This document shows, one piece after another, positions 94-4,628 of a DNA stretch of 5,567 nucleotides. The notes under the pieces were generated by a model. That model made no database searches, was not told the origin of the DNA, and was given only the letters and a program-made list of their open reading frames with translations. The stretch is from the IMG/VR virus record IMGVR_UViG_2698536379_000014. One strand, 5' to 3'. The position numbers were made by a program, and so were the translations under genes. Numbering within the stretch: position 1 is the stretch's first letter; each line of letters starts with the position of its first letter. The stretch is from a virus. Taxonomy: Duplodnaviria; Heunggongvirae; Uroviricota; Caudoviricetes.

Positions 94-1059
94 ATGAAGC
101 TCCTTTTTGCTGAACGCCCGCTGGTTATAAACACGCAGCTGGCGATGAAAATTGGTCTGAACGAAGCCATCGTGTTGCAGCAGCTGCATTACTGGTTGAG
201 AGATACCGGTTCCGGCATGGAATGTGATGGTGTTCGCTGGATTTATAACACAACAGAACAATGGCTGGAACAGTTCCCGTTCTGGTCAGAGTCAACGTTA
301 AAACGCGCATTTGCAAGTCTGAAAACGCTGGGGCTTTTGCGTTGCGAAAAGCTCAACAAATCAAAGCGTGATATGACTAATTTTTACACGATTAATTACG
401 AGAGCGAGCTTTTAGATGGTGGCAAAGTGAGCGAATCCATCAGGTCAAAATGCGCCGCTCCATCAGGTCAAAATGACACGATGGAAGAGACCAAAATGAC
501 ACGCTCCATTGGTTCAAAACGACCCAATGTCATCGGGTCAAAATGGCCCGATGATCTTACAGAGAATACAACAGAGATTACTACAGAGAATAAAAACACT
601 TCTCGTCCGGAAGCTTCGCAACCGGACATGCAGACGGCTGAACAGGATTTTTTAACCCGACATCCTGACGCGGTTGTGTTCAGTGCAAAAAAACGCCAGT
701 GGGGCAGCCAGGACGATTTGGCGTGTGCGCAGTGGATCTGGGGGCGAATCGTGAGTCTTTACGAGCAGGCCGCCAGCGATGATGGCGAGATTTCGCGACC
801 GAAAGAACCCAACTGGACCGCATGGGCCAACGACGTGCGCACAATGCGGATGCTGGATGGCAGAACTCACAGACAAATTTGTGAAATGTTTGGTCGGGTG
901 CAGCGGGATCCATTCTGGGTAAAAAATATCATGAGTCCGTCAAAGCTTCGCGAAAAATGGGATGAACTGGTTATCCGCCTGGGGCGTTCGTCTGTACAGC
1001 GTTGTGTGAATCATATTTCTGAGCCGGATACCGAAATTCCGCCGGGCTTCAGGGGGTAA
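94..1059 (+). CDS. Lambda-O-type replication initiation protein (origin-binding initiator)
   Basis: 321-aa ORF. The N-terminal ~110 aa contain an HTH-like segment (TLKRAFASLKTLGLLRCEK). The middle of the gene encodes the iteron array and A+T-rich repeats, i.e. the protein linker is encoded by the origin, which is the hallmark lambda O / ori-lambda arrangement. TAA stop at 1057-1059. Start context is unusual: a G6 run (88-93) abuts the ATG at 94, so the exact start is uncertain. Confidence 0.75.
   Translation: MKLLFAERPLVINTQLAMKIGLNEAIVLQQLHYWLRDTGSGMECDGVRWIYNTTEQWLEQFPFWSESTLKRAFASLKTLGLLRCEKLNKSKRDMTNFYTINYESELLDGGKVSESIRSKCAAPSGQNDTMEETKMTRSIGSKRPNVIGSKWPDDLTENTTEITTENKNTSRPEASQPDMQTAEQDFLTRHPDAVVFSAKKRQWGSQDDLACAQWIWGRIVSLYEQAASDDGEISRPKEPNWTAWANDVRTMRMLDGRTHRQICEMFGRVQRDPFWVKNIMSPSKLREKWDELVIRLGRSSVQRCVNHISEPDTEIPPGFRG
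436..553. repeat. Origin iteron array, five ~17-bp iterons at 23-24 bp periodicity
   Basis: Direct repeats TCCATCAGGTCAAAATG at 436-452 and again exactly at 459-475; a degenerate copy at 482-498 (TGGAAGAGACCAAAATG); TCCATTGGTTCAAAACG at 505-521; GTCATCGGGTCAAAATG at 529-545. Several iterons have flanking inverted arms (CATTGG 507-512 / CCAATG 524-529; CATCGGG 531-537 / CCCGATG 547-553), as in lambda ori iterons. Confidence 0.7.
559..594. repeat. A+T-rich region of origin, three 12-bp tandem repeats
   Basis: ACAGAGAATACA (559-570), ACAGAGATTACT (571-582), ACAGAGAATAAA (583-594), immediately right of the iterons. This is the position of the DNA-unwinding element in ori-lambda. It encodes the TENTTEITTENK linker of the O-like protein. 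Confidence 0.6.
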
Positions 1060-2690: not shown

Positions 2691-3560
2691 ATGACCACTA
2701 TTACCAAAGAACGTATTGAATTGTTCATTAAAAATCCGCTTGAAAACGGGCTTACCCGTGGTGAACAAATGGAACTGGCACGGATTGCGCTGGCATCGCT
2801 GGAAGCAGAGCCGGTGGCAAAGATTATAGCTCATTACCCATTAGGGGTTGACGTAGGCAAACAAAAATTCGTACAGGCCATTAGAGAGCTTCCTGACTTT
2901 GGCGGATATCTATTTGCCGCCCCTCCAGCGCCGATAGTGCCGGAAGAAATGTATTGGCAGGATGCGCCAGTTGAAGGCAGCAGCAAAGCGACTGCATACG
3001 CTACAGGCTGGAACGATTGCCGCGAAGCCATGCTTCAGTCCGGAAACTTTCGGGAAAATAAAGATTCGTCAACCAATAATTTTCGGAAAATCCCGGAAGC
3101 GTCAACCAGCTCTCCGGTAACTCCGGCTCTTCTGCCTGGTGGTTTCACCATTGAGGAGGCGAAGGAATTACATGAAGACCTGGTACGCAGCCACATAAGC
3201 AAGGCCTTAAGTGGCGAAAAGATGAAAAAGAAAGATCGCGATGCTGATTTGCGCTGGATTCATGGCGTTATAGTTCAGGCAGCGTGGTTTGTAAAAGCAT
3301 CACTGGAGCAGAATGCACTATCGGGCAACTATCCGGTAACTCCGGATAGTTGGATAAGCTGTAGTGAGCGAATGCCGGATACCAAAACAGCCGTTCTTGT
3401 TGCCAGGGATTTTGGCAGGAAAGGTGACTGGCGAATGAAATGGGCGACTTACATCCCGGGGCATCCTGACGCTAATGATGGGTGGATAATACCTGGTGCG
3501 TCGTGGATACCATCACACTGGATGCCTCTACCAGAACCGCCGCAGGAGGTGCGCCAATGA
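2691..3560 (+). CDS. Phage protein with DUF551-like C-terminal domain
   Basis: 289-aa ORF with AGGAG SD at 2680-2684. The C-terminus (DSWISCSERMPDTKTAVLVARDFGRKGDWRMKWATYIPGHPDANDGWIIPGASWIPSHWMPLPEPP) matches my recollection of the conserved DUF551 signature found in lambdoid phage proteins (ending W-MPLPEPP). The N-terminal two thirds are unrecognised. Stop TGA 3558-3560 overlaps the next ATG (ATGA). Confidence 0.75.
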   Translation: MTTITKERIELFIKNPLENGLTRGEQMELARIALASLEAEPVAKIIAHYPLGVDVGKQKFVQAIRELPDFGGYLFAAPPAPIVPEEMYWQDAPVEGSSKATAYATGWNDCREAMLQSGNFRENKDSSTNNFRKIPEASTSSPVTPALLPGGFTIEEAKELHEDLVRSHISKALSGEKMKKKDRDADLRWIHGVIVQAAWFVKASLEQNALSGNYPVTPDSWISCSERMPDTKTAVLVARDFGRKGDWRMKWATYIPGHPDANDGWIIPGASWIPSHWMPLPEPPQEVRQ

Positions 3561-3640
3561 ACTGGCCTGAAGCATTTGCAATTACAGGCGTTGCTATGGC
3601 TATCGCTTTTTTAGTATATGTTATTTGTCGGTGGGGGTAA
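3557..3640 (+). CDS. Candidate small hydrophobic peptide (27 aa), single predicted TM helix
   Basis: ATG 3557-3559 overlaps the upstream stop (ATGA), with AGGAGG at 3544-3549 (7-nt spacing). Translation MNWPEAFAITGVAMAIAFLVYVICRWG, stop TAA 3638-3640. Too short for the ORF track. Confidence 0.35.
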   Translation: MNWPEAFAITGVAMAIAFLVYVICRWG

Positions 3641-3675
3641 AAACGTTCGCCGGGATTAACACCAAAGGAGGGAAT

Positions 3676-3780
3676 ATGTCGGATGATATATCACTGGCAA
3701 TGGAAGGTGCGCTGGCTGTTGTTGCTGTTGTGGGCGTTTACTGCCTGGTTGTGTTTTTGATGGATCGACTAGGGAACTGA
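3676..3780 (+). CDS. Candidate small hydrophobic peptide (34 aa), single predicted TM helix
   Basis: ATG 3676 with AGGAGG at 3666-3671 (4-nt spacing). Translation MSDDISLAMEGALAVVAVVGVYCLVVFLMDRLGN, stop TGA 3778-3780. Too short for the ORF track. Confidence 0.4.
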   Translation: MSDDISLAMEGALAVVAVVGVYCLVVFLMDRLGN

Positions 3781-3788
3781 ATTCATTA

Positions 3789-3810
3789 CGATATGGGAAT
3801 TCCCATATCG
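3789..3810. promoter_or_regulatory. Perfect 22-bp palindrome (candidate operator or RNA hairpin)
   Basis: CGATATGGGAATTCCCATATCG is an exact inverted repeat, located 9 nt after the small ORF stop and about 12 nt upstream of the predicted hok -35. No U-tract follows on either strand. Confidence 0.4.
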
Positions 3811-3821
3811 GGTAAAAACGG

Positions 3822-3858
3822 TTTGCGGTAAAGCGAGAGTTAAGTAGAATTGCTGCGG
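3822..3858 (+). promoter_or_regulatory. Predicted sigma70 promoter and start site of the hok mRNA
   Basis: -35 TTTGCG/TTGCGG (3822-3828), 16-17 bp spacer, -10 TAGAAT (3845-3850). The predicted start near 3857 coincides with the beginning of the 5' element that is complementary to the mRNA 3' end. Confidence 0.4.
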
Positions 3859-3904
3859 GTGCTTGAGGCTATCTGCCTCAGGCATGAACACCAAAAGGCA
3901 GATA

Positions 3905-3980
3905 GAGAAAAGCCCCAGTTAACATTACGCGTCCTGCAAGACGCTTAACATTAATCTGAGGCCCAATCTATGTCTCACAA
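3905..3980 (-). ncRNA. sok: Predicted Sok-like antisense RNA (coordinates approximate)
   Basis: Minus-strand promoter candidate: -35 TTGCCT (plus coords 4013-4008), 17-bp spacer, -10 TAACCT (3990-3985), giving a start near 3978 and a transcript antisense to the mok SD/start (3957-3972). This matches the known hok/sok layout. The 3' end and terminator could not be defined from sequence. Confidence 0.3.
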
Positions 3981-4182
3981 ATGTAGGTTAGCCTCTTACG
4001 TGCCGAAAGGCAAGGAGAAGCAGGCTATGAAGCAGCAAAAGGCGATGTTAATCGCCCTGATCGTCATCTGTTTAACCGTCATAGTGACGGCACTGGTAAC
4101 GAGGAAAGACCTCTGCGAGGTACGAATCCGAACCGGCCAGACGGAGGTCGCTGTCTTCACAGCTTACGAACCTGAGGAGTAA
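3970..4182 (+). CDS. mok: mok-like overlapping reading frame (70 codons) in the hok leader
   Basis: ATG 3970 with SD TGAGG at 3957-3961 (8-nt spacing), 57 nt upstream of and in frame with the hok ATG, ending at the same stop. Its size matches the ~70-codon mok frames described for hok loci. Whether it is translated as an extended Hok or only serves coupling cannot be told from sequence. Confidence 0.4.
   Translation: MSHKCRLASYVPKGKEKQAMKQQKAMLIALIVICLTVIVTALVTRKDLCEVRIRTGQTEVAVFTAYEPEE
4027..4182 (+). CDS. hok: Hok/Gef-family type I toxin (HokD/RelF-like membrane peptide, 51 aa)
   Basis: Translation MKQQKAMLIALIVICLTVIVTALVTRKDLCEVRIRTGQTEVAVFTAYEPEE. It has the family hallmarks: N-terminal TM helix, LVTRKxLCE motif and conserved C-terminal TGQTEVAVFTAYE. 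From memory it is identical or near-identical to E. coli HokD (RelF). SD AAGGAG 4012-4017 (9-nt spacing); stop TAA 4180-4182. Confidence 0.9.
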   Translation: MKQQKAMLIALIVICLTVIVTALVTRKDLCEVRIRTGQTEVAVFTAYEPEE

Positions 4183-4251
4183 GAGACCAGGCGGGGGAGA
4201 AATCCCTCGCCACCGCTGATGTGTCAGGCATCCTCAACGCACCCGCACTTA

Positions 4252-4277
4252 ACCCGCTTCGGCGGGTTTTGTTTTTT
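4252..4277 (+). terminator. Rho-independent terminator of the hok transcript
   Basis: ACCCGC-UUCG-GCGGGU: 6-bp GC-rich stem with a UUCG tetraloop (4252-4267), followed by TTTTGTTTTTT (4267-4277). Confidence 0.8.
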
Positions 4278-4349
4278 CTGGTCGTTCTGGTTTACAATCC
4301 ATCCGTCAGCCTGAACAACTGGCACCTGCTGCGCCAGCAGAGAAAACAG

Positions 4350-4628
4350 ATGGCGCACGATACCAAATTTTACAATTCGGATAACTCTGCCGCCCCTGCC
4401 AGCAGGCACGGGCGGCGTTCTCATGCATTCAAATCTGACTGGTATCAGCACGACCCCTGCACCGAAGAACAGGCTGAATGGCTGATTCAGTGTTACCGCA
4501 GGCGCGGATACGAGATTAAGAAAGCCCTCAGCCTCGACTACCGTCACTGGATAATCTCCGTCAGGCTTCCTTACTCCGAACGCCCACCGCGTCCGTCCCG
4601 CACATTCCAGCAACGGATCTGGAGGTAA
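4350..4628 (+). CDS. Hypothetical protein (92 aa), in the position of rem in Qin-type prophages
   Basis: ATG at 4350 (translation MAHDTKFYNSDNSAAPASRHGRRSHAFKSDWYQHDPCTEEQAEWLIQCYRRRGYEIKK…), stop TAA 4626-4628. Weak SD. The longer track ORF from 4221 would run through the hok terminator, so the internal start is preferred. The rem assignment is by synteny from memory only. Confidence 0.5.
   Translation: MAHDTKFYNSDNSAAPASRHGRRSHAFKSDWYQHDPCTEEQAEWLIQCYRRRGYEIKKALSLDYRHWIISVRLPYSERPPRPSRTFQQRIWR

Follow-up and report, generated by a model that had tools for sequence, protein, structure and literature searches.

A hokD-type hok/mok/sok locus with a complete leader region on a Qin-like prophage of Escherichia coli O55:H7

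Positions 3823-4278 of the window, the whole 5,567-nucleotide stretch of viral DNA analyzed here, very probably constitute an intact hok/mok/sok type I toxin-antitoxin locus that carries the hokD allele on a Qin-like lambdoid prophage of Escherichia coli O55:H7. A preliminary description, made from the sequence alone, had proposed a complete locus of this kind, and the proposal held on every point that sequence can test: the Hok/Gef peptide, the full leader, and the pairings. Each of the features that it listed was present at the position assigned to it. The novelty that it implied did not hold, as E. coli commonly carries the intact form and a prophage copy of about 94% identity has already been characterized. 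The locus is an ordinary copy of the well-known hok/sok module, a kind already known, and has little significance beyond annotation. Feature positions are collected in Table 1.

Table 1. Elements of the locus, with window positions
Feature	Position	Strand	Basis
Putative hok mRNA promoter	3823-3850	+	Read from sequence; -10 kept in relatives
tac (translational activator), mRNA 5' end GGGUGCUUGAGG	3857-3868	+	Start of RF01794 match; pairs with fbi
Metastable 5' hairpin of nascent transcript, 11 bp, loop UAUCU	3859-3885	+	Minimum-energy fold; 36 loci
Stem CUAUCUGCC/GGCAGAUAG, common to closed and tac-stem forms	3869-3905	+	Folds; alignment
Predicted Sok antisense RNA, ~70 nt	3905-3978	-	Promoter position; hairpin and GGGGCUUUUCUCU tail
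ucb (upstream complementary box, anti-SD) AAGCCCC	3910-3916	+	Pairs with mok SD (closed) or tac (tac-stem)
Long hairpin in Sok target region; minus strand is the Sok terminator hairpin	3918-3955		Rfam structure
mok SD GAGG	3958-3961	+	Invariant in 36 loci
mok reading frame, 70 codons	3970-4182	+	In frame with hok; common stop codon
Putative Sok promoter	3985-4013	-	Read from sequence; Sp5 identity
dcb (downstream complementary box) GCCUC	3991-3995	+	Complementary to mok SD; Rfam consensus structure
hok toxin gene (HokD allele, 51 aa)	4027-4182	+	Pfam PF01848; K-12 hokD identity; RefSeq
GC-rich 3' UTR stem-loop	4190-4211	+	Folds; conserved with compensatory changes
fbi (fold-back inhibitory element) CCUCAACGCACCC	4232-4244	+	Complementary to tac, with bulged C4238
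hok mRNA intrinsic terminator (AACCCGC-UUCG-GCGGGUU and U-run)	4251-4278	+	Terminator scan

Toxin, antitoxin, and transcript ends

The toxin of the locus is HokD. The 51-residue peptide matched the full Pfam HOK_GEF profile (PF01848, positions 1 to 42) with an E value of 1.2e-23 and a score of 82.9 bits (cut-off, 22), a significant similarity that agrees with the family assigned in the preliminary description. The coding sequence is identical in nucleotides to hokD of K-12, RefSeq names the open reading frame hokD (WP_000813254.1), and a Shine-Dalgarno (SD) sequence, AGGAGAAG, lies at 4013-4020. Overexpression of the HokD peptide is toxic (bioRxiv 10.1101/2025.08.07.668861). The proposed mok-like frame is also present, begins with an ATG at 3970, and has its own SD. 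Its product is identical at 63 of 70 residues to the 70-residue "gef homolog" orf74 of VT2-Sakai/Sp5.

The region upstream of hok is a complete leader. Positions 3857-4032 matched the Rfam family RF01794 (sok/hok-leader) over model positions 1 to 157 of 157, scoring 121.7 bits (gathering score, 59) with an E value of 2.7e-28. Because the family bears the name "sok antitoxin" and was matched on the plus strand, 3857-4032 could be taken for the antitoxin RNA gene itself. The 157-nt model, however, is the hok leader from tac to the hok start codon, including the tac-stem and the mok SD/dcb hairpin, and is thus sense to hok. Moreover, Sok is an antisense RNA of about 65 to 70 nt in the family paradigm (PMC9841398, PMC1635323), and promoter-like hexamers and a hairpin with a U-tail are found here on the minus strand. 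We conclude that a plus-strand sok gene is very improbable and that the match marks the leader of the hok mRNA.

The antitoxin is predicted from the minus strand. Sok would begin near 3978 and end in the U-run near 3905-3910, and the predicted RNA covers both the SD and the start codon of mok. Its putative promoter consists of a -35 hexamer, TTGCCT (4013-4008), a 17-nt spacer, and a -10 hexamer, TAACCT (3990-3985), and falls below the threshold of the consensus scan. Hexamers for the antisense promoter suggested earlier are in place on the minus strand, and positions 3981-4026 are 100% identical to prophage Sp5, covering the validated promoter region of sokW. In Sp5, a promoter of its own drives sokW, mutating that promoter abolishes antitoxin activity, and sokW RNA was seen by northern blotting (PMC8621323). 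The antisense hairpin folds at -30.9 kcal/mol (z = -5.39), and the hairpin of the Sok target is extended by 18 to 22 nt in the hokD-type subgroup compared with hokC-type and Photorhabdus loci.

The putative hok promoter combines a weak -35 hexamer, TTGCGG (3823-3828), with a 16-nt spacer and a -10 hexamer, TAGAAT (3845-3850). In related loci, the -10 hexamer (TAGAAT, TATAAT, or TATATT) is conserved in its spacing from the GGG 5' end, and hokW of Sp5 has the identical hexamer. A consensus promoter scan of 3600-4400 missed both the hok and the Sok promoters, since one hexamer of each matches below 4/6, the hok -35 matching at only 3/6; both promoters were placed by homology with related loci and Sp5. 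Given the conserved -10 box and the start of the Rfam model, the hok mRNA likely begins at about 3856/3857.

The 3' end is defined by an intrinsic terminator. The UUCG-loop terminator of the preliminary description, with its stem at 4251-4268 and a T-run, was recovered by a terminator scan; it is common to hokD of K-12 and absent from hokW of Sp5. Upstream of it, the GC-rich stem-loop of the 3' UTR is predicted by analogy to form the 3' end of the mRNA after processing, as the last stem-loop of the truncated hok mRNA of plasmid R1 protects against exonucleases (PMC9841398).

Pairing of the mRNA ends and alternative folds

The two ends of the hok mRNA are complementary. The sequence TGCGGGTGCTTGAGG at 3854-3868 can pair with CCTCAACGCACCCGCA at 4232-4247, leaving a single bulge, C4238, on the 3' side, and a repeat finder recovered the perfect 9-nt core (3854-3862/4239-4247). 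The preliminary description had reported this complementarity correctly but had started the mRNA at 3854, whereas the conserved -10 box and the Rfam model place its likely start two or three nucleotides later. The extra TGC/GCA pairs gained by starting at 3854 probably lie outside the transcript, and they are unconserved beyond the hokD/hokW subgroup. Within the likely transcript, the tac/fbi duplex has the 1-nt bulge and 12 bp, each of them a standard pair.

On its own, a perfect 9-nt inverted repeat is not especially rare in a span of a few hundred bases, and chance matches might account for both the end pairing and the alternative hairpins described below. Shuffled controls argue otherwise. 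Folding of the full-length RNA (3857-4277) gave -169.9 kcal/mol, whereas shuffles gave -127.3 +/- 6.0 kcal/mol (z = -7.06) and none of the 100 folded as well; the tac/fbi closure is part of the minimum-energy fold of the real RNA. The duplex itself reaches -21.5 kcal/mol, compared with -9.9 +/- 2.7 kcal/mol for shuffled 3' elements, and lies beyond the best of 1,800 shuffles (-21.2 kcal/mol).

Comparison with relatives also argues against chance. The comparative set comprised 36 related loci, including one frameshifted Shigella pseudogene, with Escherichia, Kluyvera, Photorhabdus, Pantoea, and Citrobacter among the genera; six decayed or truncated relatives (L005, L006, L015, L027, L043, and L045) were left out of the covariation alignment because their 5' or 3' element is missing. 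The aligned tac/fbi positions are 92.6% paired in the real register and 40 to 52% paired in slid controls. In the alignment (A2), the bulge-less Photorhabdus loci fall out of register over the distal half of tac/fbi, which created spurious unpaired cells, and the loci were therefore retested by duplex calculation. By that per-locus calculation, all 35 nonpseudogene loci form a duplex of about 12 bp at -18 to -25.6 kcal/mol, while the Shigella pseudogene reaches only -10. The pairing is kept with double changes: U3860 and its fbi partner change together (UA in 22 loci, CG in 11), and covariation is seen at alignment column 9. Thus, the shuffled and comparative controls refute a chance origin, which we regard as vanishingly improbable even though the unvarying tac-stem pairs described below lend no comparative support.

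The 5' end can also pair locally. The preliminary description had pointed to a hairpin of TGAGGC (3864-3869) and GCCTCA (3875-3880), which is present and extends to 11 bp (3859-3869/3875-3885). This metastable hairpin is the minimum-energy fold of the first 30 to 55 nt (-19.6 kcal/mol), is paired in 96.5% of cells across the 36 loci, and has three pairs changed on both sides. U3860 covaries with its partner in this hairpin as well (UA in 23 loci, CG in 12), and covariation of one position with both its 3' and its local partner is a known signature of hok mRNA refolding. Also present is the pairing of CTATCTGCC (3869-3877) with GGCAGATAG (3897-3905) noted before; in related loci this stem is 95.7% paired, again with three pairs changed on both sides.

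How the mok SD is paired depends on the fold. In the full-length fold, 3912-3914 joins 3960-3962, such that ucb sequesters the mok SD, and this closed helix covaries across related loci. In the open structure given by Rfam, the mok SD is instead paired with dcb, and GAGGC/GCCUC is kept in every locus with letters at both positions. The tac-stem pairs are likewise kept (99.2% across related loci). Because the tac-stem and SD/dcb pairs are invariant, neither provides evidence from covariation.

Folding energies favor the closed form. Forcing the RNA into the tac-stem or the metastable hairpin cost 7 to 10 kcal/mol relative to the closure form. In folds of the growing transcript, the first 30 to 55 nt gave the metastable hairpin, and lengths of 62 to 80 nt and 140 nt gave the tac-stem. 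The tac-stem was not, however, the minimum-energy fold of 3'-truncated RNAs ending at 4215, 4225, or 4231, in which it was about 3 kcal/mol worse than the form with the local 5' hairpin. Energies alone therefore fail to show the activating refolding, and that step rests on the R1 model and the comparative data.

Setting of the locus and its relatives

The locus resides on a prophage at a familiar site. The whole window is 100% identical to the prophage adjoining rspB in E. coli O55:H7 strain CB9615, which is the site of the cryptic prophage Qin in K-12. The neighboring prophage genes encode replication O-like, Ren-like, DUF551, DUF968, RusA, and Q products, with the integrase adjoining rspB, and the locus lies between the replication genes and the DUF968/rusA/Q genes. 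A PHROGs search with two small hydrophobic open reading frames just upstream of the locus gave no match. Among the matches listed, RefSeq annotates only the hokD coding sequence, and the leader is unannotated or lies under an unrelated feature; a reader of the raw sequence therefore meets an unannotated RNA control region.

The hokD of K-12 (relF, in Qin) has the same toxin allele and a different upstream region. The prophage type and site are the same, with the integrase beside rspB and, downstream, likewise DUF968/ydfU and then Q. The coding sequences are the same, and the 3' UTR, fbi, and terminator are nearly identical, with four substitutions from the stop codon through the terminator. 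Homology, however, begins only at about 4013, at the hok SD, and relB-relE lies upstream in K-12; the statement in the preliminary description that K-12 hokD lacks its upstream region was accurate. Absent from K-12 are the promoter of hok, its tac and ucb elements, the target of Sok, the start of mok, and most of sok together with its promoter. Conversely, the relBEF-type arrangement, with hokD straight after relB-relE, is absent from the window, which has a 170-nt leader where K-12 has relE. As judged from sequence, the two are the same toxin allele in a different, and here complete, locus architecture.

The closest characterized relative is hokW-sokW of Sakai prophage 5 (Sp5, VT2-Sakai), the Stx2 phage of E. 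coli O157:H7. It too is a hok/mok/sok locus on a lambdoid prophage, with about 94% nucleotide identity over 3813-4250, and it does not differ from the window in the hok -10 box, tac, ucb, mok SD, dcb, Sok promoter region, or fbi. The Hok peptides share 46 of 51 residues and differ at the C terminus (TAYEPEE in the window, VDYESEK in HokW), and there are a few substitutions in the mok N terminus, which is the Sok 5' region. Beyond fbi, the sequence, including the terminator, is unrelated, and the host prophage and integration site differ. The hokW-sokW pair is an established type I toxin-antitoxin system (Takada et al. 2021, PMC8621323).

More distant systems share the architecture. The hokC/mokC/sokC (gef) loci of Escherichia have an in-frame mok and nearly the same tac and fbi; their Hok is about 80% identical, their Sok-target hairpin is 18 nt shorter, and their 3' terminator differs. 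The family paradigm, hok/sok (parB) of plasmid R1, has tac, the metastable hairpin, ucb, the Sok target, mok, dcb, hok, the 3' stem-loop, fbi, and the terminator in the order seen here (names from PMC9841398). The R1 toxin is distant from the Hok of the window, HokW being 44% identical to R1 Hok (PMC8621323), and R1 hok/sok is on a plasmid, whereas the present locus is on a prophage. In a plasmid search, hokD-type copies turned up, some of them on P1-like plasmids of about 95 kb, along with only short, partial matches outside hokD-type loci; the comparison with R1 was accordingly one of elements. In R1, mok is out of frame with hok, whereas the two are in frame in the window.

Proposed control and biological role

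How the locus would be controlled is proposed by analogy with the R1 paradigm, for which the window offers fitting sequence features. A weak constitutive promoter would give an mRNA of about 420 nt from near 3857, and during transcription the 5' end would be held in the local hairpin. Once the 3' end is made, tac would pair with fbi and ucb would lock the mok SD, so that the full-length RNA would be neither translated nor bound by Sok. Slow trimming of the 3' end would remove fbi, whereupon the 5' end would refold onto ucb as the tac-stem and free the mok SD. Translation of mok would then enable that of hok, unless the short-lived Sok paired across the mok start region and blocked translation, a pairing probably followed by RNase III cleavage. 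When Sok synthesis ends, the membrane toxin Hok would be produced.

Loci of this family can decay: one relative, from Shigella (L047), has a frameshift and a degraded fbi, two lack tac (L005 and L045), and three have leaders replaced by K-12-type upstream sequence (L006, L027, and L043). The O55:H7 locus could likewise be a silent relic, intact in sequence like a chromosomal hok of K-12 and perhaps transcribed, with no killing or lysis in native single copy. Against this, the O55:H7 copy carries no IS insertion, frameshift, or broken pairing, and its tac/fbi and leader helices consist entirely of standard pairs. Moreover, the leader is retained in 4,290 of 5,426 complete E. coli genomes (about 79%), and the hokW-sokW locus, about 94% identical, gives measurable phenotypes from its prophage in single copy (PMC8621323). 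We consider a relic unlikely and infer from the intact sequence that the O55:H7 copy may be active.

What an active copy would do is likely, by analogy, to aid host lysis on prophage induction and/or to promote prophage retention or the exclusion of other phages. Help with lysis on prophage induction was demonstrated for hokW-sokW (PMC8621323). Native chromosomal hokA, hokB, and hokC, in earlier tests cited in a preprint, gave no post-segregational killing (bioRxiv 10.1101/2025.08.07.668861), and an intact sequence is thus no guarantee of a killing phenotype. We speculate, tentatively, that this Qin-like prophage, apparently a complete one, has an active hokD-type locus that, like hokW-sokW, helps lysis and phage release on induction rather than killing after segregation, and that the in-frame 70-residue Mok-Hok product might be a second, N-terminally extended isoform of the toxin.

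The hokD of textbooks, that of K-12, is the exception, and elsewhere in E. coli a complete, RNA-regulated locus occupies the same site on the same type of prophage. Low-level A-to-I editing has been reported at the Tyr47 codon of hokD, and the function of hokD, including this editing, would be better studied on an intact copy than on that of K-12. If our speculation is true, the relBE-hokD arrangement of K-12 would be derived, a type II module having taken the place of the RNA region that controlled a type I toxin.

Organization of the hok locus

The analysis supports a complete, HokD-type hok/mok/sok locus, as a preliminary description had proposed, with agreement among Pfam and Rfam matches, folds, covariation and a relative in Sakai prophage 5 (Sp5). 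Every string named in that description was in place when the full window was read, and the 51-residue peptide matches Pfam HOK_GEF across the entire profile (E = 1.2e-23). The mok-like frame lies upstream of and in frame with hok and is preceded by its own Shine-Dalgarno (SD) sequence, GAGG, such that translation from its ATG would yield a 70-residue, N-terminally extended Hok. An in-frame mok is common to the window, orf74 of Sp5 and hokC-type loci; in plasmid R1, mok and hok are in different frames. A terminator scan recovered the UUCG-loop terminator, AACCCGC-TTCG-GCGGGTT followed by TTGTTTTTT.

Features of the window (coordinates are window positions)
Feature	Position	Strand	Remark
O-like replication initiator gene	94-1059		PHROG 391
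Five tandem 23-nt repeats	438-553		CATCAGGTCAAAATG...-type, spacing 23-24 nt
Three 12-nt repeats	559-594		ACAGAGAATACA
DUF551 ORF	2691-3560		289 aa, single and continuous
Small hydrophobic ORF	3557-3640		27 aa
Small hydrophobic ORF	3676-3780		34 aa; RefSeq hypothetical protein
Palindrome	3789-3810		22 bp, perfect; CGATATGGGAA/TTCCCATATCG
Putative hok promoter	3823-3850	+	TTGCGG-16-TAGAAT
RF01794 match	3857-4032	+	157/157 model positions
tac (translational activator)	3857-3868	+	likely hok mRNA 5' end
Local (metastable) hairpin	3859-3885	+	
ucb (upstream complementary box)	3910-3916	+	
Predicted Sok RNA	~3978 to ~3905	-	
mok SD	3958-3961	+	
mok-like frame	3970-4182	+	70 aa
dcb (downstream complementary box)	3991-3995	+	
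Putative Sok promoter	4013-4008, 3990-3985	-	TTGCCT, 17-nt spacer, TAACCT
hok ORF	4027-4182	+	ATG to TAA, 51 aa, from ORF list
TadA editing motif	4165-4168	+	UACG
fbi (fold-back inhibitory element)	4232-4244	+	
Terminator	4251-4268	+	

The Rfam model RF01794 matched the plus strand at 121.7 bits (E = 2.7e-28; gathering score, 59). Whatever its family name implies, the model is sense to hok, running from the mRNA 5' end through the tac-stem, Sok-target hairpin and mok-SD/dcb hairpin to the hok start codon. On the minus strand, the hexamers of the candidate antisense promoter are in place, but neither it nor the hok promoter passes a consensus promoter scan, and both assignments therefore rest on position, conservation and comparison with Sp5. 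The putative Sok promoter is followed by a 15-bp-class hairpin and GGGGCUUUUCUCU (-30.9 kcal/mol, z -5.39), and the predicted Sok RNA would span the mok start codon and SD. We note that the Sok-target/Sok-terminator hairpin has an 18- to 22-nt GC-rich extension (3925-3948, CGCGUCCUGCAAGACGC core) in the hokD/hokW subgroup and some Kluyvera loci, whereas hokC-type and Photorhabdus loci are without it.

The TadA motif comprises the hok Tyr47 codon UAC and the following G, and UACGAA is invariant at the site in 36 of 36 aligned loci. The K-12 hokD mRNA is reported to undergo A-to-I editing at this codon (Tyr to Cys) at a level of about 6% (PMC12214031).

Alternative folds and their conservation

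The hok mRNA is predicted to adopt alternative folds, whose elements are named after the R1 hok model (PMC9841398). As described, the reverse complement of TGCGGGTGCTTGAGG (3854-3868) lies at 4232-4247 as CCTCAACGCACCCGCA, interrupted only by an extra C4238 on the 3' side, and a repeat finder independently returned the perfect 9-nt core (3854-3862/4239-4247) and an imperfect 21-nt inverted repeat (3858-3878/3896-3916). The tac/fbi duplex is predicted at -21.5 kcal/mol, and none of 1,800 shuffled 3' elements was as strong (mean, -9.9 ± 2.7). Moreover, RNA 3857-4277 folds at -169.9 kcal/mol, compared with -127.3 ± 6.0 when its dinucleotides are shuffled (z -7.06), with the 5'/3' closure present in the minimum-energy structure.

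When transcripts of increasing length were folded with ViennaRNA, the local hairpin formed in the first 30 to 55 nt (-19.6 kcal/mol), and at 62 to 80 nt the 5' end switched to AAGCCCC (3910-3916), giving the tac-stem (-28.5). The 140-nt transcript adopted the Rfam consensus fold of tac-stem, Sok-target hairpin and GAGGC/GCCUC hairpin. In the full-length RNA, tac/fbi closure was better than an enforced tac-stem by 10.5 kcal/mol and than an enforced metastable hairpin by 6.9 kcal/mol, and in the closed form ucb (3912-3916) pairs with the mok SD. In RNAs ending before fbi, however, the tac-stem was not the minimum-energy fold; the local hairpin was kept and the tac-stem was about 3 kcal/mol worse. 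Thus, the predicted energies are compatible with the proposed refolding from nascent to mature mRNA but do not demonstrate it.

A Hok peptide scan of one genome per species gave 53 loci, of which 36, from Escherichia, Shigella, Kluyvera, Pseudocitrobacter, Citrobacter, Photorhabdus and Pantoea, were aligned after duplicates, short contigs and copies without the 5' or 3' element were left out.

Conservation of pairing in the 36 aligned loci
Helix	Cells paired	Slid controls	Remark
tac/fbi and adjacent stem	92.6%	40-52%	double changes at 6 pairs
Metastable hairpin	96.5%	29-52%	double changes at 3 pairs
Closed ucb/SD helix	85.1%	25-45%	AU/GC 24:12, GC/AU 20:12
tac-stem 5'/ucb pairs	99.2%		invariant, hence uninformative on covariation

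The most telling column is 3860, a base bulged in the tac-stem, with U in 24 loci and C in the other 12. Both its fbi partner 4241 (UA 22, CG 11, UG 1, 2 unpaired) and its metastable-hairpin partner 3884 (UA 23, CG 12, UG 1) shift from A to G with it. Covariation of a single base with two partners is the pattern that alternate use of the two pairings should produce, and Gultyaev, Franch and Gerdes reportedly described such "coupled covariation" for the hok family in 1997. A per-locus duplex calculation, which sidesteps the alignment register problem of the bulge-free Photorhabdus loci, gave a full or almost full 12-bp tac/fbi duplex (-18 to -25.6 kcal/mol) in 35 of 35 non-pseudogene loci; in L047, a frameshifted Shigella pseudogene, it was only -10.

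Sequence features, folds and covariation fit the R1 paradigm, and the mechanism would be that of plasmid R1 (PMC9841398, PMC1635323). For the window copy, we infer the transcripts, 3' processing, Sok action and toxicity.

Relatives in Sp5 and K-12

The characterized relative is hokW-sokW of Sp5. HokW is toxic and is neutralized by sokW RNA made from its own promoter, mutation of which abolishes protection; mitomycin C causes RecA-dependent loss of sokW RNA and appearance of HokW, and without hokW-sokW phage release is halved (Takada et al. 2021, PMC8621323). The two loci are about 94% identical over 3813-4250, with no difference in the hok -10 box, tac, metastable hairpin, ucb, mok SD, dcb, fbi or any part of the Sok promoter region (3981-4026). 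They differ only in a few bases of the hairpin loop and mok N terminus, in five residues at the Hok C terminus and in the sequence past fbi, and 63 of 70 Mok/Hok residues are identical. The palindrome, with an EcoRI site at its center, is absent from the Sp5 locus, where similarity begins at 3813; it lies about 10 nt past the stop of the 34-residue ORF and 13 nt ahead of the hok -35, with no T-run after it on either strand.

E. coli O55:H7 strains, CB9615 among them, matched a 521-nt query at 100% identity, and RefSeq annotates 4027-4182 as hokD (WP_000813254.1); among the matches listed, the leader carried no annotated feature or an unrelated one. Around hokD are lambdoid prophage genes: an integrase adjoining rspB, excisionase, exonuclease, dicB, repressor/cro, O-like replication protein, Ren-like DUF977, DUF551, hokD, DUF968, RusA, antiterminator, lysis genes and terminase. 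The repeats within the initiator gene look like origin iterons, as in phage lambda. For the same DNA in L001, a related locus (10912-11781), RefSeq annotates two pieces in place of the single DUF551 frame: part of a pseudogene and a shorter DUF551 CDS. The two small ORFs directly upstream of the hok locus (MNWPEAFAITGVAMAIAFLVYVICRWG and MSDDISLAMEGALAVVAVVGVYCLVVFLMDRLGN) had no PHROG match.

In K-12, the intQ pseudogene beside ynfP/rspB marks the end of the cryptic prophage Qin, which carries relB-relE-hokD-rem-ydfU-ydfT. The window is therefore Qin's counterpart at that chromosomal site. The statement in the preliminary description that K-12 hokD lacks its upstream regulatory region is confirmed: identity to the window starts only at about 4013 (the hok SD) and continues through the coding sequence (0 differences), the 3' untranslated region with fbi and the terminator; upstream lies relE instead of the hok leader. 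K-12 retains an fbi that is now partnerless. We note that the sequence between relE and hokD in K-12 also replaces the leader in three loci (L027 from Kluyvera sp. CHPC 1.2972, L006 and L043), as a group a Kluyvera genome, a K-12-like strain and a second, frameshifted E. coli copy.

Abundance

The 521-nt region was matched in 4,739 of 5,426 complete E. coli genomes (at least 80% covered in 3,820), and the leader alone (3845-4012), absent from K-12 hokD, was found in 4,290, with a median of 2 and up to 10 copies per genome and 537 places on plasmids. Copies also occur in 79 phage records, including Stx1/Stx2 phages and mEp460, labeled variously "gef," "host killer protein," "MokW" or "HokD toxin." A 2026 preprint cataloged 44,248 Hok homologues and reported prophage enrichment. 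Near-identical E. coli-type copies (96 to 100% protein or 98.5% DNA identity) appear under unrelated genera: two on tiny contigs that look like contamination (L017, Acinetobacter idrijaensis, 275 bp; L022, Xanthomonas pisi, 431 bp) and one in a phage record unexpected for its stated host (H28, Actinobacillus phage vB_Apl-pPE4).

Elements of this kind are already known and very common in E. coli, and the locus is of low interest for that reason and because a near-identical relative has been characterized experimentally. The residual interest is small: the window has in intact form, and at the same prophage site, the locus that K-12 retains only in part.
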